From the IMG/VR virus record IMGVR_UViG_3300005289_000004, positions 11,641 through 75,640 of that record: a DNA stretch of 64,000 bases; one strand, given 5' to 3'. Below, one piece after another: positions 2,153-24,402 of this stretch (positions are counted from its first letter, which is position 1; every line of letters begins with the position of its first letter). The position numbers and the translations under genes were made by a program. The DNA is from a virus. Under the pieces are notes generated by a model. The model did no database searches, was not told the DNA's origin, and saw only the letters and a program-made list of their open reading frames with translations.

Positions 2153-5100
2153 TTATATTTTTATTTTTCTACGGAATTTAGATTTTGCAATAGCTGCTCC
2201 TCTTGAATAAGCTGATTTCAATCTAGGTATCATTCTTTCAGGGTCAGTTTTATCAGTATAGTTTTTAAGTATTCTTTCCACTAACTTTCTTCTTTCCTGT
2301 CCTACCATCTTAGTCAACTCTGACTTTTGCTCCTTATCTAACTTGACTTTAAAATCCTTTTTAGTGAAGGTGTCGTCTATTGAATTAGGTATAGCTCCGT
2401 CATCCCTTGTCTTACGTTGTATGTCAAACACCGCATAAGTAATAGGGTCTTGCAAAATCTTTTGACTCCTGAATATATCAATTATCTGGTACACGTAAGG
2501 ATTAGAACCATCTGGTGTTTGTTTAATAGGTTTACCCCACATATCATATTTAATAGGCAAGTCTTCAACATTACCGACCTTTTCTTTTATGATATTAGCA
2601 AATGTTTGTAACTGATCGTCTGTGTACAAATCTCTCATATAATCGTTAGAGGCTCTGAATGTCTGAGAAACTGTATTTGGAATCCCCATTGTAACAAAAG
2701 TCTTTCCTAGCTGGGGTATTATATTTTTAGCTCCATCAGGTGTAGAGACTGCACTTAGAATTGTTTCTGCCCCTTGTACGAATGATTGGTTAAAGAAGTA
2801 GCGCATAGCAGCAGGAGCATTTGTTGCAAAATTACCTATGAAATTAAGTGGATTTAAACCTGCTTCTGGGTAGTACGCTTCTCCTTTAGTGTTAACTACA
2901 TCTGCTTTCTTCTTTTGTTCCCTTAACTGTTCTCCTTTTGTTGAAGAAACTATACCTATCTGTGCGCCAATCAATCCTAGTGGTACATAAGATACTACTC
3001 TATCTCCTTGTTTATAAGCGAAATCTTCTCCATTTAACAACCTTTTAACTCCATCTACATTTATTGTGTTTGGCGGTTGGGTAGCAAACATAAAATCTTT
3101 TTGTTTCTTTTGAAACTTGTCTTCTGGTAAATCTCCTGTTGCTAGTCCATTGGCTACTAAGATTGTTGCTGCACCTAATACTGCTCCACTTACTATAGCT
3201 TGACCCATGTGTTCAGAGAAGTCTTTTTGATGCCTACGTATAAGAGTCTCTTTAAGCTTGCTATCTTTCATCTTATAAGCCTTGGTTAGCTGAGTAGCAT
3301 CATAAATAGCTTGACTAAAGGGTATGGCAGGAACAGCAAACTTAACTGTCTTTAATGCAATAGAGGACGGAGTATTTACAAATGGTAAGATACCTTTCAT
3401 TATGAACCTGTAACTGGCACTGGCAGTTGTGCCTCCTATTTCCTCTATTCGTTTAGCTCCGTCCCCGATTAAGCGGTTTATGTTACGGGATATTACGTTC
3501 TCCTCTTGGAAAGTAGCTTCTTTACCATAGTTTGTGGCTTCTTCTAAGGATTTGGCATCTGGTTTTAAAACAAATCGTTCTAGTGCATCTCCCTCTAAAC
3601 CCTTATCATTCTTACCGATCTCAACAAGTCTTTGTGTTTTAGCTTGCTCAAAGAATGGATCATCCCCAAAAGGAAGTAACCTGAACATTAAGTTAGCAGG
3701 AACACCAATAGTAGACTCTGTAAAATCTGATAATCCTTGTGACCATCCATACTGATTCTCCTCACGGGTAGCTGAACTTTTAAGGTTTTCAAACAACCTG
3801 TTAAATGCTACTCTGGGTTTTAATCTACCACCTACATCATATTTTGCCAGCTCTGCATTAGCAGTACCTCTGACAGCTTTACGTGTAGCCCTTTTAGAGC
3901 CTTGTACAACAGCTCTACTTCCTAACCTAATGTTATCCGCACTAAGGGTAGGAGACTTCGTTCTACGGCTTGTAATTAGCCCCACTAGGGCATCAACTGC
4001 TGTAGCTACATCGTTCTCTGTACCTCTTAAACCGAATTGCATTAAGTTGGCAAATGGGTTGATAACAACAGATTTAAAACTAAGTAGGTTTCCCTGTAGT
4101 ATTTTAGCTAAAGTGTCTGGTAAGTTCTTTCCTCTTATATTGTCAATGTAATCCTCTAAATCTCTGATTGCATCTTCGTAAGCTATTTCATTTGCATAGT
4201 AATCTTTGTAGTCAGCATCATCTAAAGTTTCAGTTACTTTATTTAATGCTTCCTCTACTCTTGCAGCCGCTTGCTGTTGATTAGCAAACAGTTCTTTTAT
4301 TTTAGTCTTTTGAGGTTCGGTTAGCTTCTTATTAACTTTATCTAACCACTTTTCAACAAGCTGTATGTATCCGTCTGGTGTAGATGATTTAAACTCTCCG
4401 TATTGACGTAATGTTTGTGCAGCAACTGTAGCAGACTTAGAGAGGGTTTCAATTATCTTACTTGCTTCGTCAAAGTTTCCTTCTGAATTGTACTTGTTAA
4501 TTAACTCAATACCTGCTAGCACACCAATATTTTGTTCGGATGTTAGTTGAGATGTTACAGCAGAAAGTTCTCCCACTAACCGTTGTTTCTCTAAATCGTC
4601 CATTGTAGACAACCTACTCCTTATTTCCGCATAATCCTGTGTTTGATAAAGCTGTTCTGTATTATCTAAAAGTTCTGCTGTCTCTGTAGGTGTTGTTTCA
4701 TCGGTTCTAACTCTTTCGCCAAATCCACGTACACCGTATCCTAACTGTTCTGCTGACTGTCTGTAAATATCCCGTAACTGTTCATCAGGAATAGTCTTAC
4801 CTAAGTCCTGTCTCATCCGATCTGCAAAGTCTTTAAAGCGTATTACTCCTTCTTCTACATACGTAACACCAAGTTCTACTAAATCTTTAATAGCATCCGG
4901 GTTTATTCCTGTATTTATGTTAGAGAGTTTATCACTTAGTCTTTTGGTTATCTCTGCTCGTCTGGCTTGTATTTCGGTTAGCTTCTGTTCTGTAACTGTA
5001 AGTCGCTGTTCTGGTACAATTATTTCAGACTCTATATTTGAAGTGTTTTTTGATCTTTCATACTCTTTAAACGATTCAACATCGGCCTCAGACCCCAACT

Positions 5101-7048
5101 CATGTATTTGCTCAGGATTAAATACCAACACCTCAGGGAACTTTAAGTCATCAGCATAATCTTTAGGGTCTAGTCCATTATCTTTAATTCTCTGCTCGTA
5201 AATTTCTGGTGTAGCGATTAAACCGTCATAACCCTGATCTTCATACTCCTTAACAAGCTCTTTACTTGTTTTACGTGTTATCTCGTTAGCATCAACATAT
5301 TTAGGGTTCTTCAAGTTAACGACAACAGATATTGTTTTACCATCTTCTGAGAAATGACCTTGTTTAGAGGATGTAAAGTACATTGTTCTACTCTTATCGA
5401 AGCTCTTTAAGTCAAAGTCTTTAGTAGTTTGGTGGTACATAACAGCATTAACCTTAGACTCAGGGAATATGTTCTGAACATACGTTTCATATTGTTTTTC
5501 ATCCCCAATAGTCTTTATCTCATCTTTACTCCCATAAACATCAGATACACCTGTTATAGGTTCAGTAGTTGTATTTTCTGCAACAGGTGTAATAATGGAG
5601 TCTAACTCTGCCTCAACTTGATTTAACTCTTCTTGTAAGGTAGTTTTAGTTACCTCAGATAAAGTTTTATCTTTAAGTATATCGGTTATAGCATCTGCAC
5701 GTTGTACAAGAATGTCTGTATCGGCTCTCTGCTCTGGGGTTAGTTTTTGCTCTGTTGTAACTGCCCCTTCAACTAAGTTAGATAACTCTTCTGTCTTTTG
5801 CTCTAATACGTCACTAACAGCATCGCTACCTGTTTTATCTAAGTCAGCTTTAAGTTCGTTGATTTCAGTGGTTAGCTGCTCTACTCTCTCACGCCCTTGT
5901 TTATTTTTAACTGAACCTAGTATATTTCCTGCACCTTGAATACCACTATCCATTACACCACCAACTATAATAGCATCAGCCACACCTTGCATCAAATCTA
6001 AGTCAGGATTTAAACCGCTATATTTATCAAGCATGTTTTGAGTGAACTGTGTAAGCCCCTCAGAAGCTCCACCTTTACCAAAAGCTACAGGAATACCGTT
6101 CTTAGCGAATATCTTTTTCAAATAACCTTCTGCAAACTCTGTTGCTTTACGTTTGGCTACGTCTATTCCATCCCTACCCAAGTCCCGTACAATATCATCT
6201 ATAATTGCTTTAGAGCCGAATGCTTGTTCAAACACAACTTCACTTAAACCGTTAAAAGCAGCAACGATTGGTTTTTGATAGTTCTTAATGTCAGGGTTGT
6301 CTTCAATCTCTGCTAATTTGTTTGAAGCAAATGGTAGCGCATTTAAAGCTGTTTTGCTGATCGTAGAGAGGTTTGCTGCTTGTCCTAGACCTGCTGTAGC
6401 ATATAGCTGTAGTAAAGACGGTACAGAGCCTGTAATAGCGTTAGCTACCTGTCTTCCTGCATCACCTAGTTTACCGTTCTTAATTGAGTTATAAATATCA
6501 CCTTCAAACTTAGTTACCTCTTTATTGTAAGCCTCTGACTCTCCCCTGTAATGTTGAGACACTTGGTCTAACAGTTTTAATGGGGTGCTTGCTTTTCCTG
6601 TTTCGTTTAACAGTTCTGCGTAGGAGGTAGATAGCGTATTCTTTAACTCCCCTTCTGGCAATTGGTCTGCTATAAAATTTTGAGGAATAGCTGCTAACTC
6701 GTAAACTATTTTTGGAATATCTGCAACACCTGCATAAGCCTTGTTAAGGGAAGATGCAAACGTGTTCCAAGTATCTGACCAAAAACCATCATCTTTTTTG
6801 GGGGCTGTTATAGCAACTTCTTCTAATTGCTTTGTTCCGTAAGTTGGTTCAGGTTCAACAGGTGCAGGTGGGGCGATCTTAGTTTCAAAATCTTCGTAAC
6901 TTCCTAGATCGTACTCTTTACCCACTCCATCATAAAATGCTTTACGTTTTGTTGAGTCTCCCATCTTACCAGAGAACTCTTCGTAACTGCCAACACTATA
7001 ATCTTTGGATACGGCTTCATACAGTAATTTTAATTTCTCCTCATCCAT
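2153..7048 (-). CDS. Large internal virion/ejection protein (polyvalent protein) with ADP-ribosyltransferase-like domain
   Basis: 1631 aa, last of three cargo-position genes; VMYHQT..MYFTS..NLKNP..GYDG..EVLVFNPEQI segment (~5070-5510) matches the ART-PolyVal pattern; largely helical elsewhere. Confidence 0.7.
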   Translation of the reverse strand: MDEEKLKLLYEAVSKDYSVGSYEEFSGKMGDSTKRKAFYDGVGKEYDLGSYEDFETKIAPPAPVEPEPTYGTKQLEEVAITAPKKDDGFWSDTWNTFASSLNKAYAGVADIPKIVYELAAIPQNFIADQLPEGELKNTLSTSYAELLNETGKASTPLKLLDQVSQHYRGESEAYNKEVTKFEGDIYNSIKNGKLGDAGRQVANAITGSVPSLLQLYATAGLGQAANLSTISKTALNALPFASNKLAEIEDNPDIKNYQKPIVAAFNGLSEVVFEQAFGSKAIIDDIVRDLGRDGIDVAKRKATEFAEGYLKKIFAKNGIPVAFGKGGASEGLTQFTQNMLDKYSGLNPDLDLMQGVADAIIVGGVMDSGIQGAGNILGSVKNKQGRERVEQLTTEINELKADLDKTGSDAVSDVLEQKTEELSNLVEGAVTTEQKLTPEQRADTDILVQRADAITDILKDKTLSEVTKTTLQEELNQVEAELDSIITPVAENTTTEPITGVSDVYGSKDEIKTIGDEKQYETYVQNIFPESKVNAVMYHQTTKDFDLKSFDKSRTMYFTSSKQGHFSEDGKTISVVVNLKNPKYVDANEITRKTSKELVKEYEDQGYDGLIATPEIYEQRIKDNGLDPKDYADDLKFPEVLVFNPEQIHELGSEADVESFKEYERSKNTSNIESEIIVPEQRLTVTEQKLTEIQARRAEITKRLSDKLSNINTGINPDAIKDLVELGVTYVEEGVIRFKDFADRMRQDLGKTIPDEQLRDIYRQSAEQLGYGVRGFGERVRTDETTPTETAELLDNTEQLYQTQDYAEIRSRLSTMDDLEKQRLVGELSAVTSQLTSEQNIGVLAGIELINKYNSEGNFDEASKIIETLSKSATVAAQTLRQYGEFKSSTPDGYIQLVEKWLDKVNKKLTEPQKTKIKELFANQQQAAARVEEALNKVTETLDDADYKDYYANEIAYEDAIRDLEDYIDNIRGKNLPDTLAKILQGNLLSFKSVVINPFANLMQFGLRGTENDVATAVDALVGLITSRRTKSPTLSADNIRLGSRAVVQGSKRATRKAVRGTANAELAKYDVGGRLKPRVAFNRLFENLKSSATREENQYGWSQGLSDFTESTIGVPANLMFRLLPFGDDPFFEQAKTQRLVEIGKNDKGLEGDALERFVLKPDAKSLEEATNYGKEATFQEENVISRNINRLIGDGAKRIEEIGGTTASASYRFIMKGILPFVNTPSSIALKTVKFAVPAIPFSQAIYDATQLTKAYKMKDSKLKETLIRRHQKDFSEHMGQAIVSGAVLGAATILVANGLATGDLPEDKFQKKQKDFMFATQPPNTINVDGVKRLLNGEDFAYKQGDRVVSYVPLGLIGAQIGIVSSTKGEQLREQKKKADVVNTKGEAYYPEAGLNPLNFIGNFATNAPAAMRYFFNQSFVQGAETILSAVSTPDGAKNIIPQLGKTFVTMGIPNTVSQTFRASNDYMRDLYTDDQLQTFANIIKEKVGNVEDLPIKYDMWGKPIKQTPDGSNPYVYQIIDIFRSQKILQDPITYAVFDIQRKTRDDGAIPNSIDDTFTKKDFKVKLDKEQKSELTKMVGQERRKLVERILKNYTDKTDPERMIPRLKSAYSRGAAIAKSKFRRKIKI

Positions 7049-7050
7049 CT

Positions 7051-8433
7051 TTAAAATCCTTGTATTGTTTTCTTACCTGTTGACTTAGGGGCTGTTTGTT
7101 TTGGTGTTGATTTGGCAGTTGTACTTCCTGCTGTTGCTGGTTTAAAAGTTGACAATGCTTGCGCTATAGATTTAGAGTTTTTAACGTTAGCTGGTAATCT
7201 ATCATAAGGAATGAAATAATCATTAGCCACACCATCCTCTGCTAGCCTAACATGTATAACTGGTTTCCTAACCACATTATTAGGATTGTTTCTAGCAAAA
7301 TTAGGTTGTGCTATAGCTCCTGCAAGTGGATTTTTCCCTTGACCTTTTGCTGGTTTAATAAATGGTGCGTTAGTTATACCCACTACTTCATATCTGCCAG
7401 AAGAAGGTAACGGCTCATTCAAAGGTTTACCTGTTGCTAGGTCTATTGACTGACTACCTGCAAAATTCTTATTAGGGATAGATAGCGGTACATATTCATC
7501 TAACTGTACACTTCCTTTACCGTCTGCAAATGGAAGATTAACTGAGGTAAGACTGCCAACTGCTGCGTTACTTCCTGAACCAGATTTAGCTACAGCAGGG
7601 ATAACATCTCTGAACCTGTCTTTAACTTCGCCCGGTTTAAACGCACTATATAACTCTTGAGTTTTCTGTACAAGCAATTGATCTGGCGTAACACCTAGTT
7701 GTGCAGCTTGCGTATCAAAAATATTACGGTACTTACTATCATTATTATACTGCCAGCTAAGTGCTGTCCCTACAGTTTCTGGTGTTAAATTAGTTGTGGT
7801 TATTTTATCTCCTGTCAAAACACGACCGTCCATACTACCTTTACCGTACGATGTAGTTTTACCTGCTTTGTTAACAAGAGTATTCATCAGTTGTGACTCT
7901 TCGTTATTTAGGTAGCTGGTATCAGGTTGAGTGTAGTTGGCAAGGTTGTATGCTCCCAAGTCTATTTCATCAGTTGGTGTTTTATCCAGTTTTTGAAGTC
8001 TAGCTTTAGCATCAGAAGAAACTAATCCTGTACTTCTTGGGTCTGCTATAAAGTCGTATGCTTTGGTGGCAATTTTACCTCTTTCTTTACTGGTAGTTAT
8101 AAACTGTTTAGTCTCGTTAATGTCTTTCTCCAACTGCATTCTTAGCTTTAACCGTTCTTCCCTACTTGACGCTTTGTTAGCTTGATAGTAAGTGTCGTAA
8201 ACTTTAGTGAGTCTGCTGTTTAATTTATTTACATCTACCTGTTGTATGCCATTAGGGTTGATGTTTTTAATTAAAGTAGACAGTTCTTTTTGGTCGGCTG
8301 CTTGTTGTTTAGCTAATGCTTGCTGTTGTGATACTATTCTCTCTTGGTTAGCTTGCCACGCTTTACCTATTGTTCCGAAGAACGCACCCAACACGGCATC
8401 TCCTCCTCCATTATAATCTTGTGGTGTTGCCAT
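7051..8433 (-). CDS. Internal virion/ejection protein
   Basis: 460 aa, Q/A-rich coiled-coil N-terminus, lies between the small and large ejection genes. Confidence 0.6.
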   Translation of the reverse strand: MATPQDYNGGGDAVLGAFFGTIGKAWQANQERIVSQQQALAKQQAADQKELSTLIKNINPNGIQQVDVNKLNSRLTKVYDTYYQANKASSREERLKLRMQLEKDINETKQFITTSKERGKIATKAYDFIADPRSTGLVSSDAKARLQKLDKTPTDEIDLGAYNLANYTQPDTSYLNNEESQLMNTLVNKAGKTTSYGKGSMDGRVLTGDKITTTNLTPETVGTALSWQYNNDSKYRNIFDTQAAQLGVTPDQLLVQKTQELYSAFKPGEVKDRFRDVIPAVAKSGSGSNAAVGSLTSVNLPFADGKGSVQLDEYVPLSIPNKNFAGSQSIDLATGKPLNEPLPSSGRYEVVGITNAPFIKPAKGQGKNPLAGAIAQPNFARNNPNNVVRKPVIHVRLAEDGVANDYFIPYDRLPANVKNSKSIAQALSTFKPATAGSTTAKSTPKQTAPKSTGKKTIQGF

Positions 8434-9124: not shown

Positions 9125-9997
9125 TCACTCGTTGACCGTAGATACGTTTCCTTTTGTCACAATTTTAAATAACTGTAGAGCTTGCGAACCATCTATTGTT
9201 GTTAATTCCATGCTGAGGTAGCGACCTTTGAGTCTATCTCCGTCAACAAGTCCTGTTATCTTATCCCTCAGAAACTCTGCATAATGTATACCCTCTTTAC
9301 TGGTAAAATCTGCTTCTATTAAATCCGATACATGACCTAACTGAGTGGTAATACCGTCTGTTGTAGTTGCCATTATTATGTTGGAGTGGATAGCTACTGA
9401 ACTCCAAGTCTTAACGTAGCCTGAACCCATAGGAAACTTAACGGTTGTTTGAAACTGTTCTCCGTAGAAGTTGTTGTAGTTACTGTTGTTCTTGTGAATC
9501 CATAACTGACCGTTCTTCCAAGTAAACAAATCTGTGAACATGCTAAAACCGTTCTCTGGTCTGTAGCTTCTAAAGTCAACCCACCTGTTTCTGTCCTCAC
9601 TCCATATCACATTGAACTTACTGCCTGTGCTTACTTCTTCTCCTTCTTTCTGAATATTTAGCACCTCTATTTCGAGATAACCTGTTCCCCAGAATGTCAG
9701 TTTCTGGTTAGCTTCTGTTGTGGAGATTTCTACTGTTACATCTTGTACAGTTGTGTACGTAAACAAAGGTGTATCAAATCCTAAGCTAAGGCTTGGTGAG
9801 TTAGAAGCTGCTATAATTCTAAAACTTATAGTATAGTTGGTATCCTCATCAAAAGGATAAGTAAGCAGTTTTAACGGTGTATTGTTATTACACGGATAAT
9901 GAATAGCTTTAGTACCATTAAGCTCCCATGATCTGTCATTTAACAGTTCTTGAAAGTTTATAAGTACTGGTTGATCTTCTACAGTTTTAATATTCAT
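9125..9997 (-). CDS. C-terminal part of tail muzzle/stabilization protein
   Basis: WSEDRNRWVDFRSYRPE..LFTWKNGQLWIH..NNFYG..KEG..RD..GDRLKGRY resembles the C-terminus of crAss-like stabilization (P22 gp10-like) proteins. Confidence 0.6.
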   Translation of the reverse strand: MNIKTVEDQPVLINFQELLNDRSWELNGTKAIHYPCNNNTPLKLLTYPFDEDTNYTISFRIIAASNSPSLSLGFDTPLFTYTTVQDVTVEISTTEANQKLTFWGTGYLEIEVLNIQKEGEEVSTGSKFNVIWSEDRNRWVDFRSYRPENGFSMFTDLFTWKNGQLWIHKNNSNYNNFYGEQFQTTVKFPMGSGYVKTWSSVAIHSNIIMATTTDGITTQLGHVSDLIEADFTSKEGIHYAEFLRDKITGLVDGDRLKGRYLSMELTTIDGSQALQLFKIVTKGNVSTVNE

Positions 9998-10197: not shown

Positions 10198-11549
10198 TAG
10201 GGATCTACTCTATTAAATACAAAACTATAATATGAACCTACGTGATAAAGTGGGTCATTGGTTGAAGCGTTTATAGTTATAGTGTGATCTCCAATTGTTA
10301 ATGGGTAACCGCTTGGATATAAGTTTGTTGACACCACAGGCCCCATCTCACAACCAAGACTTCCACCAGGACTCGTTGCTGAACCTATTTCCACCCCATC
10401 TATAAATATAGTCATTTGTTCAAAAGTACTAGCTTGTTTCTCGGCTAAACCTTCCCAAATAGCCTGTATCGCTTGCGCAGTCGTTACGTTAATACTTACT
10501 GTTGCTGTTGCACTTTGAGTTTTATCATTTGTTCCTCCCGGACAATTGGCACTATCCTCCCAATTCACCCTTAGTCCATAACCACCTGCTGAAACGCTCC
10601 AAAATGCAGGGGTAGGTATTGAAGGGAAAGATGTTTGATCATACGTTCTTGTAGCAAGTATACTTCCTGCACCTGTGTCAGTGAAACTCCACGGGGTATT
10701 AAAAGTGAATGACGGTAACGGTTCTTCTTCTGTACAGTTTCTATGTTCTTCTGAATCTGCGTAAGCCTGTCCGTTATCTTCTATATCCTGTAGTGCGTCT
10801 GCGTTAGCTTCTTCTTTAGTCGCTGCTGTATAAGTATCTGCTGGCACAGTGTACGTTACAGTTCCCCCTACAAATCCTTCTGGACAGTTACTAACGAAAT
10901 CTTGACTTTGTAAATCATTACCTATTACTGGCGCAGCACCATGTTCTAATCGTATTATATCACCATCAAGAACATTTTCCGCTAAAGCTGTGTCTTTATT
11001 TAAAGCGAACTGAGCATTCGTTATATACGCTGGGAAAGAAGTGCTACTAGACCCTAAAAGCGTACCGTTGCGGTATATTCTTGACTGTTTACTAGCAGCC
11101 GAAGTGATACTATTTGCGGTCAAATACGATTCTATCCTTGATATATAGCTATCAGCAGGTATTGTTATGGATGTTGAATAAACTCCTCCTCCTCTAGTAA
11201 CAGTTGATGGAAACCATAAACCACCTAACACATCCGAAACCTGTAAGATGCGTACACTCATTCCTCTGCTATCCATAGCTTGATACCTTGCGTCTATAAA
11301 ATCGGGGTAAATCACGACTTCAAATATAAAGGTTACTGTATCTGTTGGAGTGGCGGGTTTAGTGGTTATATTAAAATCAGTGCTATACCCTCCTACTGTT
11401 AAGGTAGCAGTAGTGGTTGTGCTGTTGACGGCTGAACTATCTCTTCTTACCTTTACAACGTCTCCGTTTACCACAGTTCCTGCAACTGATGTGTACGCAT
11501 CTGTATTCTTTTTATACTCTCCGTTAACTATACTTATTGGTGTTGCCAT
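10197..11549 (-). CDS. Tail accessory/receptor-binding protein (partial Ig repeat, DUF5977-like repeat, beta-rich C-terminus)
   Basis: N-terminus completes an Ig repeat begun in the upstream gene; SQDFVSNCPEGFVGGTVTYTVPADTY..EANADA..GQAYA is a DUF5977-like repeat. Confidence 0.65.
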   Translation of the reverse strand: MATPISIVNGEYKKNTDAYTSVAGTVVNGDVVKVRRDSSAVNSTTTTATLTVGGYSTDFNITTKPATPTDTVTFIFEVVIYPDFIDARYQAMDSRGMSVRILQVSDVLGGLWFPSTVTRGGGVYSTSITIPADSYISRIESYLTANSITSAASKQSRIYRNGTLLGSSSTSFPAYITNAQFALNKDTALAENVLDGDIIRLEHGAAPVIGNDLQSQDFVSNCPEGFVGGTVTYTVPADTYTAATKEEANADALQDIEDNGQAYADSEEHRNCTEEEPLPSFTFNTPWSFTDTGAGSILATRTYDQTSFPSIPTPAFWSVSAGGYGLRVNWEDSANCPGGTNDKTQSATATVSINVTTAQAIQAIWEGLAEKQASTFEQMTIFIDGVEIGSATSPGGSLGCEMGPVVSTNLYPSGYPLTIGDHTITINASTNDPLYHVGSYYSFVFNRVDP

Positions 11550-11587
11550 AAACTTCGTTTTTTTTTACAAGGTGACCATCTTTAAAA

Positions 11588-14500
11588 TTATATTACTAAG
11601 GTAACTGCATTAGATTCATACGTTGTACTTAACTCTGCGTTAGTGACTGCTGTGAATGTAAATGGATTAGGGTCTATACTGTCTTTTGTAGTTATTGTAA
11701 AACTTGTTGTGTAGCTGCTTACTGTTACATCAACCGTCACTGCTGTGCTATAAGCTGTAGAACTGTTTCTTCTTAGTTTTAAAACATCTCCTACGTTTAT
11801 TGTACCTGTTGTAGATACCCAACCGCCTCCGTTTATTTGGTATTGTCCTCCAACTACCGAAATAGATACTGGTACGTTAATTCCGGCTATAGTAGCCCCA
11901 TTCGACGTTTGAAGGGTATTAAGATTAGCATTAGTAACAGGAGTAAATGTAAACGGAGTTGGCGTTGTAACTGGTATTTTAGTTACGGTTGTAAAAGTAC
12001 CTGTTTCTGTTGCGATAGTTAGTGTGGAATATGCCGAATCCCCAGCAGTTGCAGAAGTCAGGTGTCTTACTTTAACCACATCTCCTGCACTTACTAATCC
12101 TGCTGATGAAGTCCAAGCTCCGCCGTTTATCTGGTACTCACCTCCTGCTGAAATACTTATAGGTGCTGGAACATTATTTCCTGCTACTACTATTTCATTT
12201 GATTCCACTAAGACTCCGCCTGTTTGATCGGTTAGGGTTATGAAAGAAAATGGATTTACTTCACCGTCACCCTCCTCTACCTCTATACAAGCAATTTTGG
12301 TAATTAGGGTAGCACCATCCATAAAAGTAATACTTACTGCATCGTCTCCAAAGTAACCTGAATCTGGTGTGTAAAGTATATCTCCTGACTCATTTGTAGC
12401 TGTTCCGTTGTCTGGTTGCACTAAGGTTACGTCTGCTAAAGTTTTAACATAACTGTCTCTGTATTCCCATTGCTGTGAAGTAAAGCTAATTACTTTGATT
12501 TCTCCATCGTTGTTGGTTATAACAAAGTTTAGCTCGTTGTTAAAGTCGTCAAATATCAGTATAATTTCTTTAGGTTCTACACTTTTTATCAGATCATGGA
12601 AATACTTAGACATCTTAGTGTCAATAATGGTTAGCCCATTTCTTCCAAACTTACAAGGATAGCCGTTGTTGTGGTCTACGAAATAAATATCCCCCTTGTT
12701 TGAAACTGTTATTGCACGTTTAGCAAGTCCTGTTCCTATATTTCCTACGCTGTACCTTACATTATTTAACAGTTTATCACTGATAGTTAGCTGATCTTGT
12801 TCGGCTTGTGTAGTTATGATTGCCATGTTAACTGGAATAGAAGCCACTTTAAGCTCCTGTAAAGCTACCAGTATGTTATCACTCATTACCAGTTTAGTAA
12901 TAGCTCCATATATGGAAGTAGTCTCTCCCGGCTCATCTCCGTAGATTCTAGCTCCGTAAAACTTATTGATGGTATTAGTCAAGCTACCGATAGAAGATGG
13001 CTCTGAGTACCTTATACTGGCCTTACGTCTAACCTTTCCTACTTCATCGTTGTAAGTACGACCTCTTCCTGCACTCCAATACCTACTCGCATACTCATCA
13101 GAGAAGTTAAAGTCTTCTACAGGGAAAGCAAACACATCATTTGAACCTTCTACATTTGATCTAAACTTGCGGGGTTTAAGGTAAGCATCAACTGCGTTTA
13201 TAGTCCCTGCTGTTACTGAGTATTCTCCATCTATAATATCAAACTGCTCACCTATTTCATAAAATATTTTAGTCTCTACAGATTCAAAGTTGTTTTTAGG
13301 TGTGTATATCTCGATTAGTATTTCATTCTCTAAATCCGACACATCTATGATGTCTGACTTTTTAATCTTCAACAGATATTTAATAGGGTCTGCTTCTACT
13401 TCGGGAGCTTTAATCTCAAAACCCGCCACAGGTAAATCGATAGCTGGCGTATTAAACCATTTAACTACCTCCCCTGAACTATCAAAACTATTTATTAAAA
13501 TAACCCTGTCTGTTGGTGTGTAATCGTAAGCTACTGCACTATTGGCCAGAAAAGCCATGTTAAGGTAAATAAACTCATCGTCACTTTCATCAACATCATA
13601 CAGAGCTGTAGCATATAACGTGTTTAAGTACTTAGTGTTTTCAGATATACCCCACTGATAACTTACTGCACCTTCTGGCGGCGTTCCTTCTATACTCCAT
13701 CCAATCTGCGGTACTTTACCTTCACTTACTGCATAAGACGGTGTGTTGGCTACGTAGTTGCTTCCTGTAATAATTGGGAAATACCTGCCCTTGTCATCAA
13801 AGTGGAATAGGGTTAGCTGATAACTTGTGTTAGATTTAACTATGTTTTTAGTCAACCCATTTACATCCCCCACATCTCCCCATACTACATCTACACCTTT
13901 ACCTTCAAAATACGGTTTGGTTATGTAGAATACTGATATACTGCCATCTGAGTTATACACCTTTCTTTTATAAGGAATACCTCCACCACTTGTGGGGACA
14001 AATGAATAGTTAGGTAGTGTGTTTAAGAAGTTAGTTGTAAACGAGTCTAAGTCATTATTATCTCCCGAATTTGCTGTATAAGGAAAATCTTCTGGTGTAG
14101 AAGGTCTGCCCCATAACTGATCTGTACGGAGGGTAACTTTGTCCCCTGCTCTTGGGTCTCCCCTAAAAATAACTTCTACTTGCCTACGATGCCCCCAACC
14201 TCTAGGAGCAGTATTAATCATACTAGCAGTAAAGTCTCTAGGGTCGGTTACTGATATGCCTAAATCTAACTGGGTAGTTCCAACTGATACTTGTACATTA
14301 GGGTCTTCTGGTCTGTCATAACCTTCATCTAAATCTGCAATAGCAAGTACATTACCATCAATTACTTCTAAAGTCCCTGCGTTACGTGGTATAGCGTCAT
14401 AAGGTTCATCTGTCTCTAAGGGAGGTATCGGTTCGTAGGCTCCATCGTTGTAGAATATAAAGGTGTATATTCCTGTTGTTGGGTCATATGCCTCTCTGAC

Positions 14501-15370: not shown

Positions 15371-16075
15371 TTAGCTTTTAAGGGACATTTTAACCGCCTC
15401 ACGGGAGTTTTTATTCATCTGTGACTTAGTGATCTTCTTAATACGTAAACGTGCCTTAGACTTCTCGTTATAGAACTGTCTCTCTTTATCTCGTTTCTCA
15501 TTTATACCCATACGTCTGTCTCCTTTACTCCATTGCCAATCTATCCAAGTAAGTAGTGCTTCTTGTGCCAGTTCGTTTATTTCGTAGTCATCGCAGTTAC
15601 CTGCTCCATTACTGATATATTTTAGCACAAAAGTTCCTGTGTATGTGTTATCAGGACTTAGTATAATCCTTCTCTCTTTTAGGTTGATGTTGTAGTAGCC
15701 TATGTTGTTGTAGCTTCCTATACCATAACTGTAACCTCCGTTTGGATAAATGTCTTTTGTGTTGCTAACCTTATTGCTAGGGTCGCTTGTAATCAATCTG
15801 TCAAGTGAGGTAAAGTTAGTTGATCTGGTGTAGCTTTGTATTCCCCCGTTACCGTTATCTATACCGAAATCTGCAATATTTAAAAAATCCTCTGGTAAGA
15901 AAATGGTCTTGTCGCTGTTAACCTCTAACCGTATTGTTTTAACCTGACCTGTAATATCCCAATTCAACTGTCTCCAACCTCTTACAGCTATCCTTAAAGC
16001 ACGTGCATACTCAGATTTCCCGAGATTTGTTAAATCCAAAAATTGTCCTACTACTTCTGAAACAAGTATGTTCAT
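15371..16075 (-). CDS. Tail ring/tubular protein
   Basis: Position before the muzzle gene; LPEDFL motif and helical ends typical of ring proteins. Confidence 0.6.
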   Translation of the reverse strand: MNILVSEVVGQFLDLTNLGKSEYARALRIAVRGWRQLNWDITGQVKTIRLEVNSDKTIFLPEDFLNIADFGIDNGNGGIQSYTRSTNFTSLDRLITSDPSNKVSNTKDIYPNGGYSYGIGSYNNIGYYNINLKERRIILSPDNTYTGTFVLKYISNGAGNCDDYEINELAQEALLTWIDWQWSKGDRRMGINEKRDKERQFYNEKSKARLRIKKITKSQMNKNSREAVKMSLKS

Positions 16076-16084
16076 AATTTAATT

Positions 16085-16696
16085 TTAAAGGTGTACACCG
16101 TCATTTGCACGGTCTGCTGGTAATAATGGTACAAGTAATCTGTAAGCTGCTTCAAAAGCCATATTTTCTACTTCACTTGGTAAGGTTAGGTCTGCATCGT
16201 CGTCAGCAGGTATACTGTACTTCTCTGTTACTAATACTTGAGCTTCTGTTACTTTCTTACCGATGAAGTACGCTTTGTTATTTTCTTTATAAAAATAGTT
16301 GATACAAGGCAAGCTAGTTTGCAGTTTATTAATGAACACTTCTTCTGTTCTTAACGGTATGTACATTGTAGCTACCCCTGATGCAGGGTTAACTGAGTTT
16401 ATGTCCAAGAACCTGTTACCTGCTATGCTAATTGATTTACCTGTAACCGTTACATACTGTAACCCTTTGGTTGCGTCTGTTGATACTGTAGCTAGATATG
16501 AGTAGGCTATACTATCATCTCCGTACTTGAAGTCTTCTAAATTACGCTGTGCAAAATAGCTGTCTCTCATTGCTTGAGCTATCCCTGCTACTACGTAACC
16601 TTTAAGTTCCCGATATGTAAAACGACTATCGTCGCCTAAATTTCCTCCATCAACTTTACGCCAAACGCGATAAACAATTTCTTTTATTGAGGACAT
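16085..16696 (-). CDS. Tail ring/tubular protein
   Basis: Likely start MSSIKE (16696); position in tail cluster, ~200 aa. Confidence 0.55.
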   Translation of the reverse strand: MSSIKEIVYRVWRKVDGGNLGDDSRFTYRELKGYVVAGIAQAMRDSYFAQRNLEDFKYGDDSIAYSYLATVSTDATKGLQYVTVTGKSISIAGNRFLDINSVNPASGVATMYIPLRTEEVFINKLQTSLPCINYFYKENNKAYFIGKKVTEAQVLVTEKYSIPADDDADLTLPSEVENMAFEAAYRLLVPLLPADRANDGVHL

Positions 16697-17592
16697 AACT
16701 CCTCCTTCCATATAAAACCGTACGAAAACTCTCTTTTGCCTGTTGTTGCCTTGCTTATGAACGAGGGGTCGAAGTTTAGTACCCTTCCTATTTCTGCTTT
16801 ATTTTTAAAACTACCTATTAAATTCATATCTTTATCATACTGATTAATTCTAATTTTAGCTAGCACAGGGCGTTCAAAACTTTCCCCCTTAAAACGCCAA
16901 ACATACCCTGAACAACCTTTAAATTTTCTTGCTGCACTTAAAATTTTCCAACTTCCCACACCTACACTTTGTGCTGCCTTCTCCGCACTTCTAAAACTTT
17001 GTACATAAACACCTTCTTGGGTGTATTGGTCAACAGCTTTATACCTGTATAGGTTTCCCTCCACAACTTTATCTATATACTCTTGAGATAATATTCTGCC
17101 TTTACGTTTTTCAGAAGCACGTTTATGAACTTCTGGGTCTCTTTTCTTCATAGCATCAGATATTTTAGCTTTAGTCTCAGGGGAAGCCTTTCTACCAATA
17201 GCTTTTTGTCTTAATTTTTCTTTTGTTTCTTCTGAGTGCTGTTTATTATTACCTGCTGGTTTTATATTGTATCCTATTTTTTTATCTAGTGACTTGTACT
17301 TTTCTACACAAGCTATTTCAATGGCATCTAGTAGCCCTATGTTAAATGTGCTATCTTTATGAGGTTTAAAGTACATCAACGCTTCTACTTTAAAATTATC
17401 AAACCCATATTTTCTAATAGCGTTACTAATGCTCATAGTAGGATTATTCTTAGAAGCAGTTTTATGAGTGTTTAATCGTTTTCTTAAATTTAAAGATTGT
17501 CCTATATATATCTTACCATTAGGTGCAGTTAGCTTATATACTCCGCAAACTCCAAAAGGTATATGACTTAATCTCTTATCAATCGGACTCAT
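16684..17592 (-). CDS. Free-standing GIY-YIG homing endonuclease with NUMOD3/NUMOD1 repeats
   Basis: GVYKL..GKIYIGQS..R; HSEETKEKLR (NUMOD3); VDQYTQEG..F.SA (NUMOD1); likely start MSPIDK just after the upstream stop. Confidence 0.9.
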   Translation of the reverse strand: MSPIDKRLSHIPFGVCGVYKLTAPNGKIYIGQSLNLRKRLNTHKTASKNNPTMSISNAIRKYGFDNFKVEALMYFKPHKDSTFNIGLLDAIEIACVEKYKSLDKKIGYNIKPAGNNKQHSEETKEKLRQKAIGRKASPETKAKISDAMKKRDPEVHKRASEKRKGRILSQEYIDKVVEGNLYRYKAVDQYTQEGVYVQSFRSAEKAAQSVGVGSWKILSAARKFKGCSGYVWRFKGESFERPVLAKIRINQYDKDMNLIGSFKNKAEIGRVLNFDPSFISKATTGKREFSYGFIWKEELCPQ

Positions 17593-17593
17593 A

Positions 17594-18241
17594 TTACTCT
17601 TGATTAATTTTATTATTAGCTGTCTGTAATTGTAAAACATCCCTCATCGACAACGAAGCCTTCTCTAAAATACGCGATGTCAACTCACTTTCTTCTGATT
17701 TATCCCATTGGTAGTAAGTAGAACCTGCATCATTATATACTGGTCTTCCTGATACTTCTGTGTAAGCGTATACCATAGGAGTAGGTCTTTCGTAGTATTC
17801 GACTGTTACTGCCAGTGAATCTTCTCCTAATAGGGTAAGCTCTTCGTAACCTTCTACATAATACTTATCTTCATCGTTAGGGCTTGCTAGTGGGTCTTCA
17901 AAGATTCTTGCTTGTCTGTCGTCATCTAAGGGTTTAACTGGTATTTTACCTGATGTAGTATAAACAGCCGATATGTAGGCACAGTTCTCTGGTTTGGTTA
18001 GCACCTCTCCTGAAAATGACAGATTAACTTTCTTTTTAAAGGGTAGCAGTCTTGTATCAACTAACCTGTTCTTACCAACTACAATTCTCGGATTAGTCTT
18101 TCTTCCTAAGAAGTCGTCAAACATCTCATTGGAAGCAATATTACCGTACCGTTCGTATTCTTTAGGGGCTACGTAAGCACCGCTATTTTTACTGAGCAGG
18201 TCTTTTAAGTATAAGTAGTTATCACCGGGTGAAATAGGCAT
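17594..18241 (-). CDS. Tail ring/tubular (head-tail adaptor) protein
   Basis: 215 aa, first gene after a late promoter; Y..RP motif typical of ring proteins. Confidence 0.55.
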   Translation of the reverse strand: MPISPGDNYLYLKDLLSKNSGAYVAPKEYERYGNIASNEMFDDFLGRKTNPRIVVGKNRLVDTRLLPFKKKVNLSFSGEVLTKPENCAYISAVYTTSGKIPVKPLDDDRQARIFEDPLASPNDEDKYYVEGYEELTLLGEDSLAVTVEYYERPTPMVYAYTEVSGRPVYNDAGSTYYQWDKSEESELTSRILEKASLSMRDVLQLQTANNKINQE

Positions 18242-21957: not shown

Positions 21958-24402
21958 CTAAGCGAGTCCGTTTTGTTGGGCTATACTTAGTGCCTCCTCC
22001 TCGGTCATCTCTCCACTATCTACTGCTGCCTGTAACTCTTGTCCCATTTGTTGTTGAGCTTGTTGCTGTTCTAACTGCTGTTGTTCTTGTTCTGCTTGCT
22101 GAGAACTGCTACTTGTCTTGACTGCTGCATTTTGAAGTGCCAGTGAAACTAACGGCTCGTACATTGGTGGAATTGGCGTGCCTGTTTTAAATGATTCGGT
22201 TATCATGTCCATAGCTCCTTTTAACAATACCTGTATTTGGTCGTTATCTCCTTTGGCTTTTTCTTTCGCTTGTTCGTACTGTAGTTGGAGTTGAATGTTC
22301 TGTCCTCTGGCTTGTTCAGTTGCTTGGGCTGCTTGTGCGTTATATTCAGCAGCACTTCTCTGGGCTACGTCTGCATCTGCTACACGTTCTTTACGTCTTT
22401 TCTCAGTCAGGTAACTAAGCATTCTTTCAGCTAGCGCATATCCTGCATCCATTGTACGTCTTATACGCATTACGTCTTCCATGTATAGAGTTCCTGATGC
22501 TAAGGCTCTTTCTATGTTCTGTTCAAGATAAGCCCTTTCATCTGAACTGATGCCTAACTCATATTTAAAATCGTAAATAGACTGTACTACTTCATCTTTA
22601 GCTTGGATAAGTTTAGCATTCTTTTCTCCTAGCAGTTTTAAGTACCCTTTATTTGGATTACCGTATTTTAAAGCATCCCATATTCTAATACCCATTTGTC
22701 GGGTTAGCTTGGTTGTTGCTTTAACGTAAGCCATGTAATTAGACACCGTTGCTGTATTTGATGCTTGTGCTTGTGACTGAGCGAACTTAAAACCAATTCT
22801 GGCTGCTGATGCTGAACCATCCCTAAACTCATTAATACCTAAAGTCTCCCTTACATTTTGTTGGGCTAGGTTATAAGCTACAATAAATCCGTTTATACTT
22901 GCACCGATGTCAACTGCTTCATTAACTACAGGGGGTTTGTAATCTATGTTACCTTCTTCATCTTTACTGTTGTAATAAAGATCACCTGTTTGTCTTCGGA
23001 TGGTTAGCACTTCTATCGGTTCTATCTCTCCATCTCCCAAGTCAATGTTCATCAAAGAGCGTATGTCAATAGAAAGTCCCGGAGGCGGTGTCTTGGCAAT
23101 TACCTGTTTTATCTTTAACCAGTTCAAATCCATGATCTGAAAGTAATCCTTGACGTTCTCTATAGGACTAGGACTTAGCATACCTCCATGATTATCTACC
23201 ATGTGGAATATGAAAGGACAGATCAACTCTTGCTTGTAATTACCATCTCTTAACTGGTTAGTTTGTTCAGCCCATTCAAGACAATAACAACCGCCACCCA
23301 AGAAATAACCTTCGTATGCTGTAAGTGGATAAACTCTTCCTGTATTCTTTCTGCCATCTGAGGATTTTCCTGTTGGGGTTAGCTTATCTGATACGTCAAA
23401 CACTGATCTACCATATCTATCTTTACCCTCTGTGTATTCTAACACTTGGTTACAAGACCACCAGACGTGCAATACCTCAACCATGAAGTTATCATACGGT
23501 CTTACGTCCCTAAACCGATAATCTTCTGTCCATCTTGGAAGTGAAGCGTTACCAAACCTACCTGCAAACTTTTTAAGATAACCATGTAGTTCTTTCTCGT
23601 CTAATCCTTTAAGTGCAAACCTAGCTCTAAGTTTAGCTAGTGGCATTCTTATTAACCGTCCTGCATAACCGCCCTCTGGTATCTCACTGAAATCATCTGT
23701 AAAACAGTTTGAATAAATACAGTCTTCTCCTTGGATGTAGTCTACAACTTCCCGACCGTTATTGTCTATGTATTCGTAAAGACCAAACAGATTGACTTGA
23801 AACTGATCGGTTAGGATTCTACGTTTAAGTTTTTCAATGTCTATGTCGTTAAAAGCAAAGGTTAAGGTTTCCTGTAGAAGTAACTCTTCTTTCTCTTTGT
23901 CGTTAATATCGTAGTACAGTTCTAAATCTTCCTTAGATTCTGGGGTATATTCTGATGGGTCTGTAAGAGGAACACCTGCTTCTTGTGATAGTTCACCTAA
24001 CACCCCGCCGTACTCCATCCTAAATTGAGCGTCTGATTTACGTTTTTCTTTTCGTTCTTGTATGTGTGCTGATAATGCAGTTACTCTTGGGAACTCCTGT
24101 CTTGATTCCATGTAGCCGTCTACTACAATCTTTTCAAATTTCTTAGCGTATGCTCCCGGTTTAATCGATATATTTGTATAGGTTGACTTACCATCAATTT
24201 CCACCATATCCAAGATAGGCTTCATATCCTGCTTTCCCTCAGCGTAAGCCCTGTTGCTTGAAAATATCTTATTACGCTTTTCCCGGTAATCGTATGTGGA
24301 TGCTAATATTGCCTTTGCTACAGAAGTACCAAATGCTTTGGTATCTTTATCTACCTTTGCCGACAATGGATTAGGAAAGTTGTCATTTATAATTAACTGC
24401 AT
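21958..24402 (-). CDS. Portal protein
   Basis: 814 aa directly after terminase; LGINEFRDG and Q-rich coiled-coil tail typical of podovirus portals. Confidence 0.8.
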   Translation of the reverse strand: MQLIINDNFPNPLSAKVDKDTKAFGTSVAKAILASTYDYREKRNKIFSSNRAYAEGKQDMKPILDMVEIDGKSTYTNISIKPGAYAKKFEKIVVDGYMESRQEFPRVTALSAHIQERKEKRKSDAQFRMEYGGVLGELSQEAGVPLTDPSEYTPESKEDLELYYDINDKEKEELLLQETLTFAFNDIDIEKLKRRILTDQFQVNLFGLYEYIDNNGREVVDYIQGEDCIYSNCFTDDFSEIPEGGYAGRLIRMPLAKLRARFALKGLDEKELHGYLKKFAGRFGNASLPRWTEDYRFRDVRPYDNFMVEVLHVWWSCNQVLEYTEGKDRYGRSVFDVSDKLTPTGKSSDGRKNTGRVYPLTAYEGYFLGGGCYCLEWAEQTNQLRDGNYKQELICPFIFHMVDNHGGMLSPSPIENVKDYFQIMDLNWLKIKQVIAKTPPPGLSIDIRSLMNIDLGDGEIEPIEVLTIRRQTGDLYYNSKDEEGNIDYKPPVVNEAVDIGASINGFIVAYNLAQQNVRETLGINEFRDGSASAARIGFKFAQSQAQASNTATVSNYMAYVKATTKLTRQMGIRIWDALKYGNPNKGYLKLLGEKNAKLIQAKDEVVQSIYDFKYELGISSDERAYLEQNIERALASGTLYMEDVMRIRRTMDAGYALAERMLSYLTEKRRKERVADADVAQRSAAEYNAQAAQATEQARGQNIQLQLQYEQAKEKAKGDNDQIQVLLKGAMDMITESFKTGTPIPPMYEPLVSLALQNAAVKTSSSSQQAEQEQQQLEQQQAQQQMGQELQAAVDSGEMTEEEALSIAQQNGLA

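Follow-up and report, generated by a model that had tools for sequence, protein, structure and literature searches.

In chaperone-usher pili of the FimA/PapA type, a pilin that lacks one C-terminal strand is completed by the N-terminal extension of its neighbour. In the baseplate of Lactococcus phage Tuc2009, the C-terminal hairpin of BppU, 25 residues long, completes a sheet within the BppA sandwich and gives a titin-like composite domain, as seen in a crystal structure (PMC4742702), and in the nozzle of Pseudomonas podophage A1002, gp39 and gp42 each supply strands that are missing from the truncated platform and propeller domains of the other, as resolved by electron cryo-microscopy (PMC13730344). 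Here we describe a locus of an uncultured virus (37% G+C) in which an immunoglobulin (Ig)-like repeat is divided between two neighbouring tail genes, those for P0001 (1258 amino acids, aa) and P0002 (450 aa). The window, that is, the whole stretch of DNA analysed, is 64,000 nucleotides (nt) long and comprises bases 11641–75640 of the 75,640-base-pair IMG/VR virus record IMGVR_UViG_3300005289_000004, which has direct terminal repeats; both split genes lie within its long minus-strand structural operon (Table 1).

As in Tuc2009, a short C-terminal beta extension (25 residues in BppU, 26 in P0001) would complete the sandwich of a partner, and the composite Ig domain would tether an accessory protein, which in Tuc2009 is the probably carbohydrate-binding BppA. 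The likeness drawn here is one of architecture, and the Tuc2009 joint is solved whereas that of P0001 and P0002 is predicted; no fused relatives are described for Tuc2009, whereas here the domain is intact in most relatives and tandem copies of it lie upstream. With A1002 the locus shares a tail-tip protein divided into two polypeptides that would rebuild a canonical architecture, although the split in A1002 lies in the platform/beta-propeller core of the nozzle and here in an appended Ig-like repeat that bears a distal module. A second split, of the A1002 kind, may exist in the window's family between the P0001 core and a 290-aa open reading frame (ORF), orf290.

Donor-strand complementation in pili is similar in that a strand-deficient Ig-like fold is completed, non-covalently, by the terminal extension of a neighbour; in pili the joint so formed is very stable. 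Unlike in pili, the acceptor P0002 lacks the first three short strands, the donor extension is C-terminal and belongs to P0001, a single joint would form instead of a polymer, and assembly is cytoplasmic, with no secretion. No chaperone or usher families were found among the scanned neighbours, and the locus is a phage structural operon, not a chaperone-usher cluster. The docking principle is known from a few solved phage tails; here, fused and split versions stand side by side. How receptor-binding modules are attached to tails and exchanged on them is central to host range.

An Ig-like repeat divided between two tail genes

The C-terminus of P0001 consists of two complete repeats of ∼97 aa and the first 26 residues of a third, hereafter the tag. 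We built a 100-position profile from 399 instances of the repeat; its positions 1–24 match the extreme end of P0001 (22.8 bits) and positions 30–97 the extreme start of P0002 (72.5 bits), hereafter the plug, both far beyond chance; with these two parts of the profile on separate ORFs, neither piece is a complete domain. P0001 closes with ...YESNAVTLVI and P0002 opens with MATPISIV..., the remainder of the repeat running to about residue 65. Bridged by two placeholder residues, the pieces align as a third repeat to repeats 1 and 2 with no further gaps, so that the loop is short of about 2 residues. The break lies at positions 26–30 of the repeat, in the loop that leads from the short early strands to the strand at 31–36. 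Beyond the plug, P0002 contains a second beta domain (∼66–205), DUF5977 (210–266), and then a distal beta domain.

Table 1. Features of the split repeat and of the structural operon in the window
Feature	Protein residues	Window positions	Strand	Remarks
Portal gene		21958–24402	minus	
318-aa homing-endonuclease-like ORF		16684–17640	minus	strong match to phrog_314, E 5e-27
234-aa virion protein gene		15371–16075	minus	immediately upstream of the P0001 gene
P0001 gene		11588–15364	minus	1258-aa tail-tip ('muzzle-like') virion protein; phrog_14478 virion structural protein
P0001 core	P0001 1–1036			
Repeat 1, complete	P0001 1037–1135	11960–12256	minus	profile positions 1–100, 104.9 bits
Repeat 2, complete	P0001 1136–1232	11669–11959	minus	115.6 bits; predicted all-beta sandwich
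C-terminal tag, start of repeat 3	P0001 1233–1258	11591–11668	minus	profile positions 1–24
P0001 stop TAA (11588–11590) and 38-nt intergenic gap		11550–11590	minus	
N-terminal plug, remaining two thirds of repeat 3	P0002 1–65	11355–11549	minus	profile positions 30–97
P0002 gene		10197–11549	minus	450 aa; plug, second beta domain, DUF5977, distal beta domain
290-aa ORF (orf290)		9125–9997	minus	directly after the fused ORF in relatives
460-aa ORF		7051–8433	minus	downstream operon
1631-aa gene		2153–7048	minus	operon end

The 38-nt gap between the genes holds a second in-frame TAA, a run of nine A (A9) and an A-rich start region. The P0001 frame reads TAA, one codon, TAA, and the P0002 frame, offset by one base, has a TAA five codons ahead of its ATG; with two upstream stops, a stop in the P0002 frame and the one-base shift, one indel is unable to rejoin the genes. 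The 20 nt ahead of the P0002 ATG are 55% A and contain no Shine-Dalgarno motif, like most genes of the operon, whose leaders are mostly A-rich (40–70% A) and likewise lack the motif. Within the gap (window 11550–11587, minus strand), a four-codon mini-ORF, ATG GTC ACC TTG TAA, lies in the P0002 frame and is followed by the A9 run.

Identical P0001 and P0002 sequences are present in JGI/IMG and ENA assemblies (2–3 contigs). P0014, 84% identical overall to P0001, ends at the same residue, and on the other side of the break P0003 and P0004 are 74% and 50% identical to P0002, P0004 differing in its middle module; the first 15 residues are invariant in P0002, P0003, and P0004. These two proteins were the only homologues of P0002 residues 1–65 returned by a protein homologue search, and IMG/VR yielded no relatives of P0002 alone.

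A sequence-only reading of the window had claimed that an Ig repeat is divided between two tail genes with about two loop residues absent, and that the 38-nt gap has stops in both frames and an A-rich initiation region and defies repair by a single indel; it named a conserved split point in homologous phages as a check. The profile halves and the placeholder alignment agree with the first claim and the reading of the frames with the second, and the check is borne out by close relatives, which show the same break on both sides, two of them at 73–80% identity. The gene fission within this Ig-like domain is genuine and conserved: the reading frames are separate, P0002 has a start context of its own, and relatives are mostly fused.

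The stop after a partial repeat extends to more divergent proteins. P0078, P0081, and P0068, the last together with P0244, a full-length protein of its cluster, terminate at profile position 27, their tag finishing ...YESNTITISGL, one residue past the end of P0001. P0078 and P0068 fall in phrog_14478, as does P0001, and P0081 in another virion-protein family (the families being phrog_14478 and phrog_15100). Compared with P0001, these distant proteins are 26–31% identical in their cores, 45–60% in their last full repeats and 60–85% in their tags; ordinary repeat starts are on average 41% and at most 56% identical to the window tag. Since several independent proteins stop at one position, contig ends are no explanation, and a tag that is 60–85% identical though cores are 26–31% identical points to strong constraint on a tail that is unable to fold alone.

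The predicted joint and its alternatives

The complete repeat (repeat 2) is predicted to be an all-beta two-sheet sandwich of eight to nine strands with no helices, at a predicted local distance difference test score (pLDDT) of 95. Its best fold matches in the PDB are PapD-like, PKD, titin Ig, and Rib domains, all weak and generic (template modelling score ∼0.5, E ∼0.01). No Pfam family covers P0001 residues 1037–1258, and the repeat has no curated Ig-type match above cut-off; the sole Pfam match nearby is Big_9 at residues 975–1019, whose 23.1 bits fall short of the cut-off of 23.6. Even so, the repeat occurs widely among large multi-repeat proteins, with 2941 representative proteins at E ≤ 0.001.

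We predicted the complex of P0001 residues 1136–1258 with P0002 residues 1–215. Its interaction prediction score from aligned errors (ipSAE) was 0.81, against 0.00 for the best of three controls; the ipSAE mark is reached by 58 of 80 solved complexes and by 2 of 110 mismatched pairs, counts that are rough because our own alignments were used. Contact agreement between runs was at least 98% and partner pLDDT at least 63. The predicted interface joins P0001 1230–1258 to P0002 1–4, 26–42, and 50–65, which are exactly the two pieces of the repeat: P0001 1240–1245 lie against P0002 60–64 (first strand with last strand) and P0001 1247–1256 against P0002 29–40. The earlier proposal that the two polypeptides refold one Ig domain is thus matched by a prediction that brings together these very termini, and the score suggests that the halves are compatible with one fold; binding is a separate matter. 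P0002 modelled alone, from an alignment of 3 sequences, has pLDDT 30–43 over residues 1–68. The model of the whole protein (pLDDT 57) is too poor for a fold search, and a structure look-up in the Atlas with P0002 gave just weak likeness to small viral hypothetical proteins.

We consider a trans-complemented docking joint the probable outcome of the fission. Two separately translated polypeptides, arising from gene fission inside the last Ig-like repeat, would rebuild the domain in trans. The 26-residue tag of P0001, presumed unable to fold alone, would supply the first short strands of the sandwich and the first ∼65 residues of P0002 the remaining six; the tag would insert into the incomplete sandwich, where its first strand would pair with the plug's last one and its later strands with the one around P0002 residues 29–38. 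The resulting non-covalent composite domain, a predicted fold, would tether one P0002, likely a distal host-contacting module, to each C-terminal arm of P0001, at the site where most relatives carry the module covalently. The 1:1 stoichiometry, the presence of P0002 in the virion and its receptor-binding role are what we infer, the last from position only.

If the halves do reassemble, the locus would represent a clean natural protein-fragment complementation in virion assembly. It would also give a rule for uncultured crass-like phages, that a gene starting mid-domain belongs with a protein ending mid-domain, and it would offer a small natural tag/acceptor pair for mounting modules on phage tails. 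The locus also illustrates that 'hypothetical' genes beside tail genes can be given a place in the virion from sequence alone.

Several points weigh against the docking joint. All of its support comes from prediction and comparison, and a split domain may pass the predictor through likeness to the intact repeat. The low pLDDT of the isolated P0002 N-terminus counts for little, since the alignment comprised 3 sequences. The distant tag-bearing proteins are known from the tag side, and the adjacency of the genes for P0014 and P0004 is inferred from the equal length of their contigs (27,954 base pairs). P0003 and P0004 are ∼90% identical over the first 200 residues and then 15–50%, and P0002 and P0003 show the reverse, 50–70% at first and then 85–90%; these opposite patterns indicate a recombination breakpoint near P0002 residue 205, after the second domain and away from the joint.

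Some of these points would equally suit a fission scar without complementation, in which the gene was cut by an insertion and the half-domains are leftover, largely unstructured ends, P0002 attaching to the tail via another surface or being a free, non-virion protein. The complex score could then stem purely from resemblance to the unbroken repeat, and the model of P0002 beyond the plug is poor. Most relatives being fused, the split is a derived state, possibly a recent one in the lineage of the window. We nevertheless regard a scar as unlikely. The tag is the best-conserved C-terminal part across lineages whose cores are 26–31% identical, the plug's first 15 residues do not vary among three relatives whose sequences elsewhere diverge by 26–50%, and the break lies in a loop, where a fold tolerates a cut; one would expect functionless ends to decay or be lost from a compact phage genome.

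A third possibility is recoding, in which the ribosome hops the gap from ATA to ATA, in the manner of T4 gene 60, or shifts frame twice, to yield one fused polypeptide. The codon layout has some appeal: the P0001 stop directly follows a last sense codon ATA, P0002 codons 5 and 7 are ATA, ∼53 nt downstream, and the gap includes an A9 run. The bypass gap of T4 gene 60 is 50 nt, a similar distance. ATA is, however, a common codon at 37% G+C, and landing on it would remove a conserved Pro and several domain residues. The RNA around the gap has no stable take-off stem-loop, its minimum free energy of –13.8 kcal/mol marking it as less stable than shuffled controls, which average –19.8 (z = +1.79), and both upstream-frame stops precede the A9 run, so that slippage there brings no rescue. 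Relatives keep the ATG, along with its A-rich context and the residues that follow, as a gene start, and the more distant tags stop one residue later, on another last codon. Ribosomal bypass, which the sequence-only reading had named as an alternative, is therefore disfavoured by the lack of RNA structure, the two stops and the frame change, and we judge recoding of either kind very unlikely.

A single frameshift, like stop-codon read-through or transcriptional slippage in the A9 run, is rejected on the arrangement of frames and stops. A split intein is rejected as well, because repeat sequence reaches the break, with ∼2 residues missing and no extra segment, where intein halves would add tens to about 100 residues, and an isopeptide lock was rejected on inspection of the repeat consensus alone, which has no conserved Lys/Asn/Glu set.

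The homopolymer run in the gap might raise suspicion of an error in assembly or sequencing, or of an inactivating mutation of very recent date that left P0002 a dead gene remnant. Either is most improbable, given identical proteins from both JGI/IMG and ENA, the same split in relatives at 73–84% identity with full-length intact ORFs on both sides, and ∼35 extra nt, two stops and a frame change between the pieces, which is more than a single error.

Fused relatives and the history of the split

A P0001 homologue is encoded at 68 IMG/VR loci, and the repeat is present in 35 of them. In every one of these 35, the repeats are complete and sit within a single ORF, which continues into a variable C-terminal region. 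Most repeat-bearing loci have an orf290 homologue directly after the fused ORF, which indicates that P0002 occupies the place of the relatives' variable C-terminal domains; DUF5977 is also found in three fused relatives.

At two loci (L010, 9828–11926; L015, 9935–12868), enzyme-like genes of 2–3 kilobases are inserted between the fused ORF and the 290-aa homologue, and the fused ORFs there have long Thr/Ser/Pro-rich linkers after the repeat. As candidate split partners the inserted genes were rejected, being unrelated enzymes.

On a tree of the core (quick IQ-TREE search, midpoint root, 24 chosen sequences), the split state occurs at three separate places, and its distribution over well-supported branches requires no fewer than three changes; the fused sisters P0028, P0025, and P0024 surround P0001 and P0014. 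Either the tag/plug cassette has passed from one lineage to another, or genes split and fused repeatedly at this loop. The idea of an exchangeable module, also put forward from the sequence, has mixed and indirect support: the three placements on the core tree favour it, and the recombination breakpoint near P0002 residue 205, not at the joint, speaks against it.

We tentatively propose, as a possibility short of a firm expectation, that the tag and the ∼65-residue plug are a portable split-domain docking pair, moved between divergent crass-like tail-tip proteins or arisen in them repeatedly, that allows distal genes to be swapped. Were the pair portable, whole distal host-recognition genes could be exchanged without touching the large tail-tip gene, and the fused and split relatives would represent a natural, engineerable plug-and-socket for host-range modules.

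Searches for further split loci added little. Pattern scans for the tag plus stop (viral, metagenome, and genome contigs), for a longer tag (viral and metagenome contigs) and for the plug start (viral contigs) gave nothing useful, and a looser plug-start pattern gave seven matches, all to one unrelated pentapeptide-repeat gene. When the 70-residue plug was compared with representative proteins, the best 150 matches were all long multi-repeat proteins, among which N-terminal plugs are indistinguishable.

The tail-tip core and the structural operon

No sequence or profile match in the PDB was found for P0001. Its alignment to crAss001 gp44 has an hhalign probability of 37% (E 3.6e-4) and is collinear at the N-terminus, residues 9–153 against 9–150. 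The muzzle of crAss001, which is hexameric, has a propeller like that of the T7 nozzle, with Ig and crass domains as insertions. In crAss001, gp43 (236 aa) precedes gp44 and gp45–47 follow; in the window, a 234-aa gene precedes P0001 and genes of 208, 460, and 1631 aa come later. P0001 thus has the operon position of a crAss-type muzzle, which comes directly after a ring/tubular protein (∼235 aa) and ahead of large internal proteins. The name 'muzzle' for P0001, and with it homology to gp44, is weakly indicated by these sequence comparisons. No informative similar cultured phage was found among 50,697 phage records, and tblastn gave no match there either.

The core itself seems, from the arrangement of its homologues, to be in two pieces in the window's clade, resembling the split nozzle of A1002. 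In 10–12 distant relatives, one ORF of 1082–1334 aa matches P0001 residues ∼1–950 and then residues ∼125–280 of the 290-aa ORF (L033, L034, L037, L039, L041, L047, L056, and L062–L064). The clade of the window has separate genes for the P0001 core and the 290-aa ORF, and repeats and variable domains are appended at the break.

P0002 is followed in the operon by ORFs of 66, 290, 208, 460, and 1631 aa. The 460-aa ORF opens with the same 12 nt (MATP) as P0002 and is otherwise unrelated to it; it was rejected as a second plug, as there is no partial repeat at its start, and the MATP match is probably coincidence. Upstream, the 318-aa homing-endonuclease-like ORF is interposed between virion protein genes. 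The 1631-aa protein is possibly an ejected internal protein and has a short match, over residues 685–753, to a DarB-like antirestriction family.

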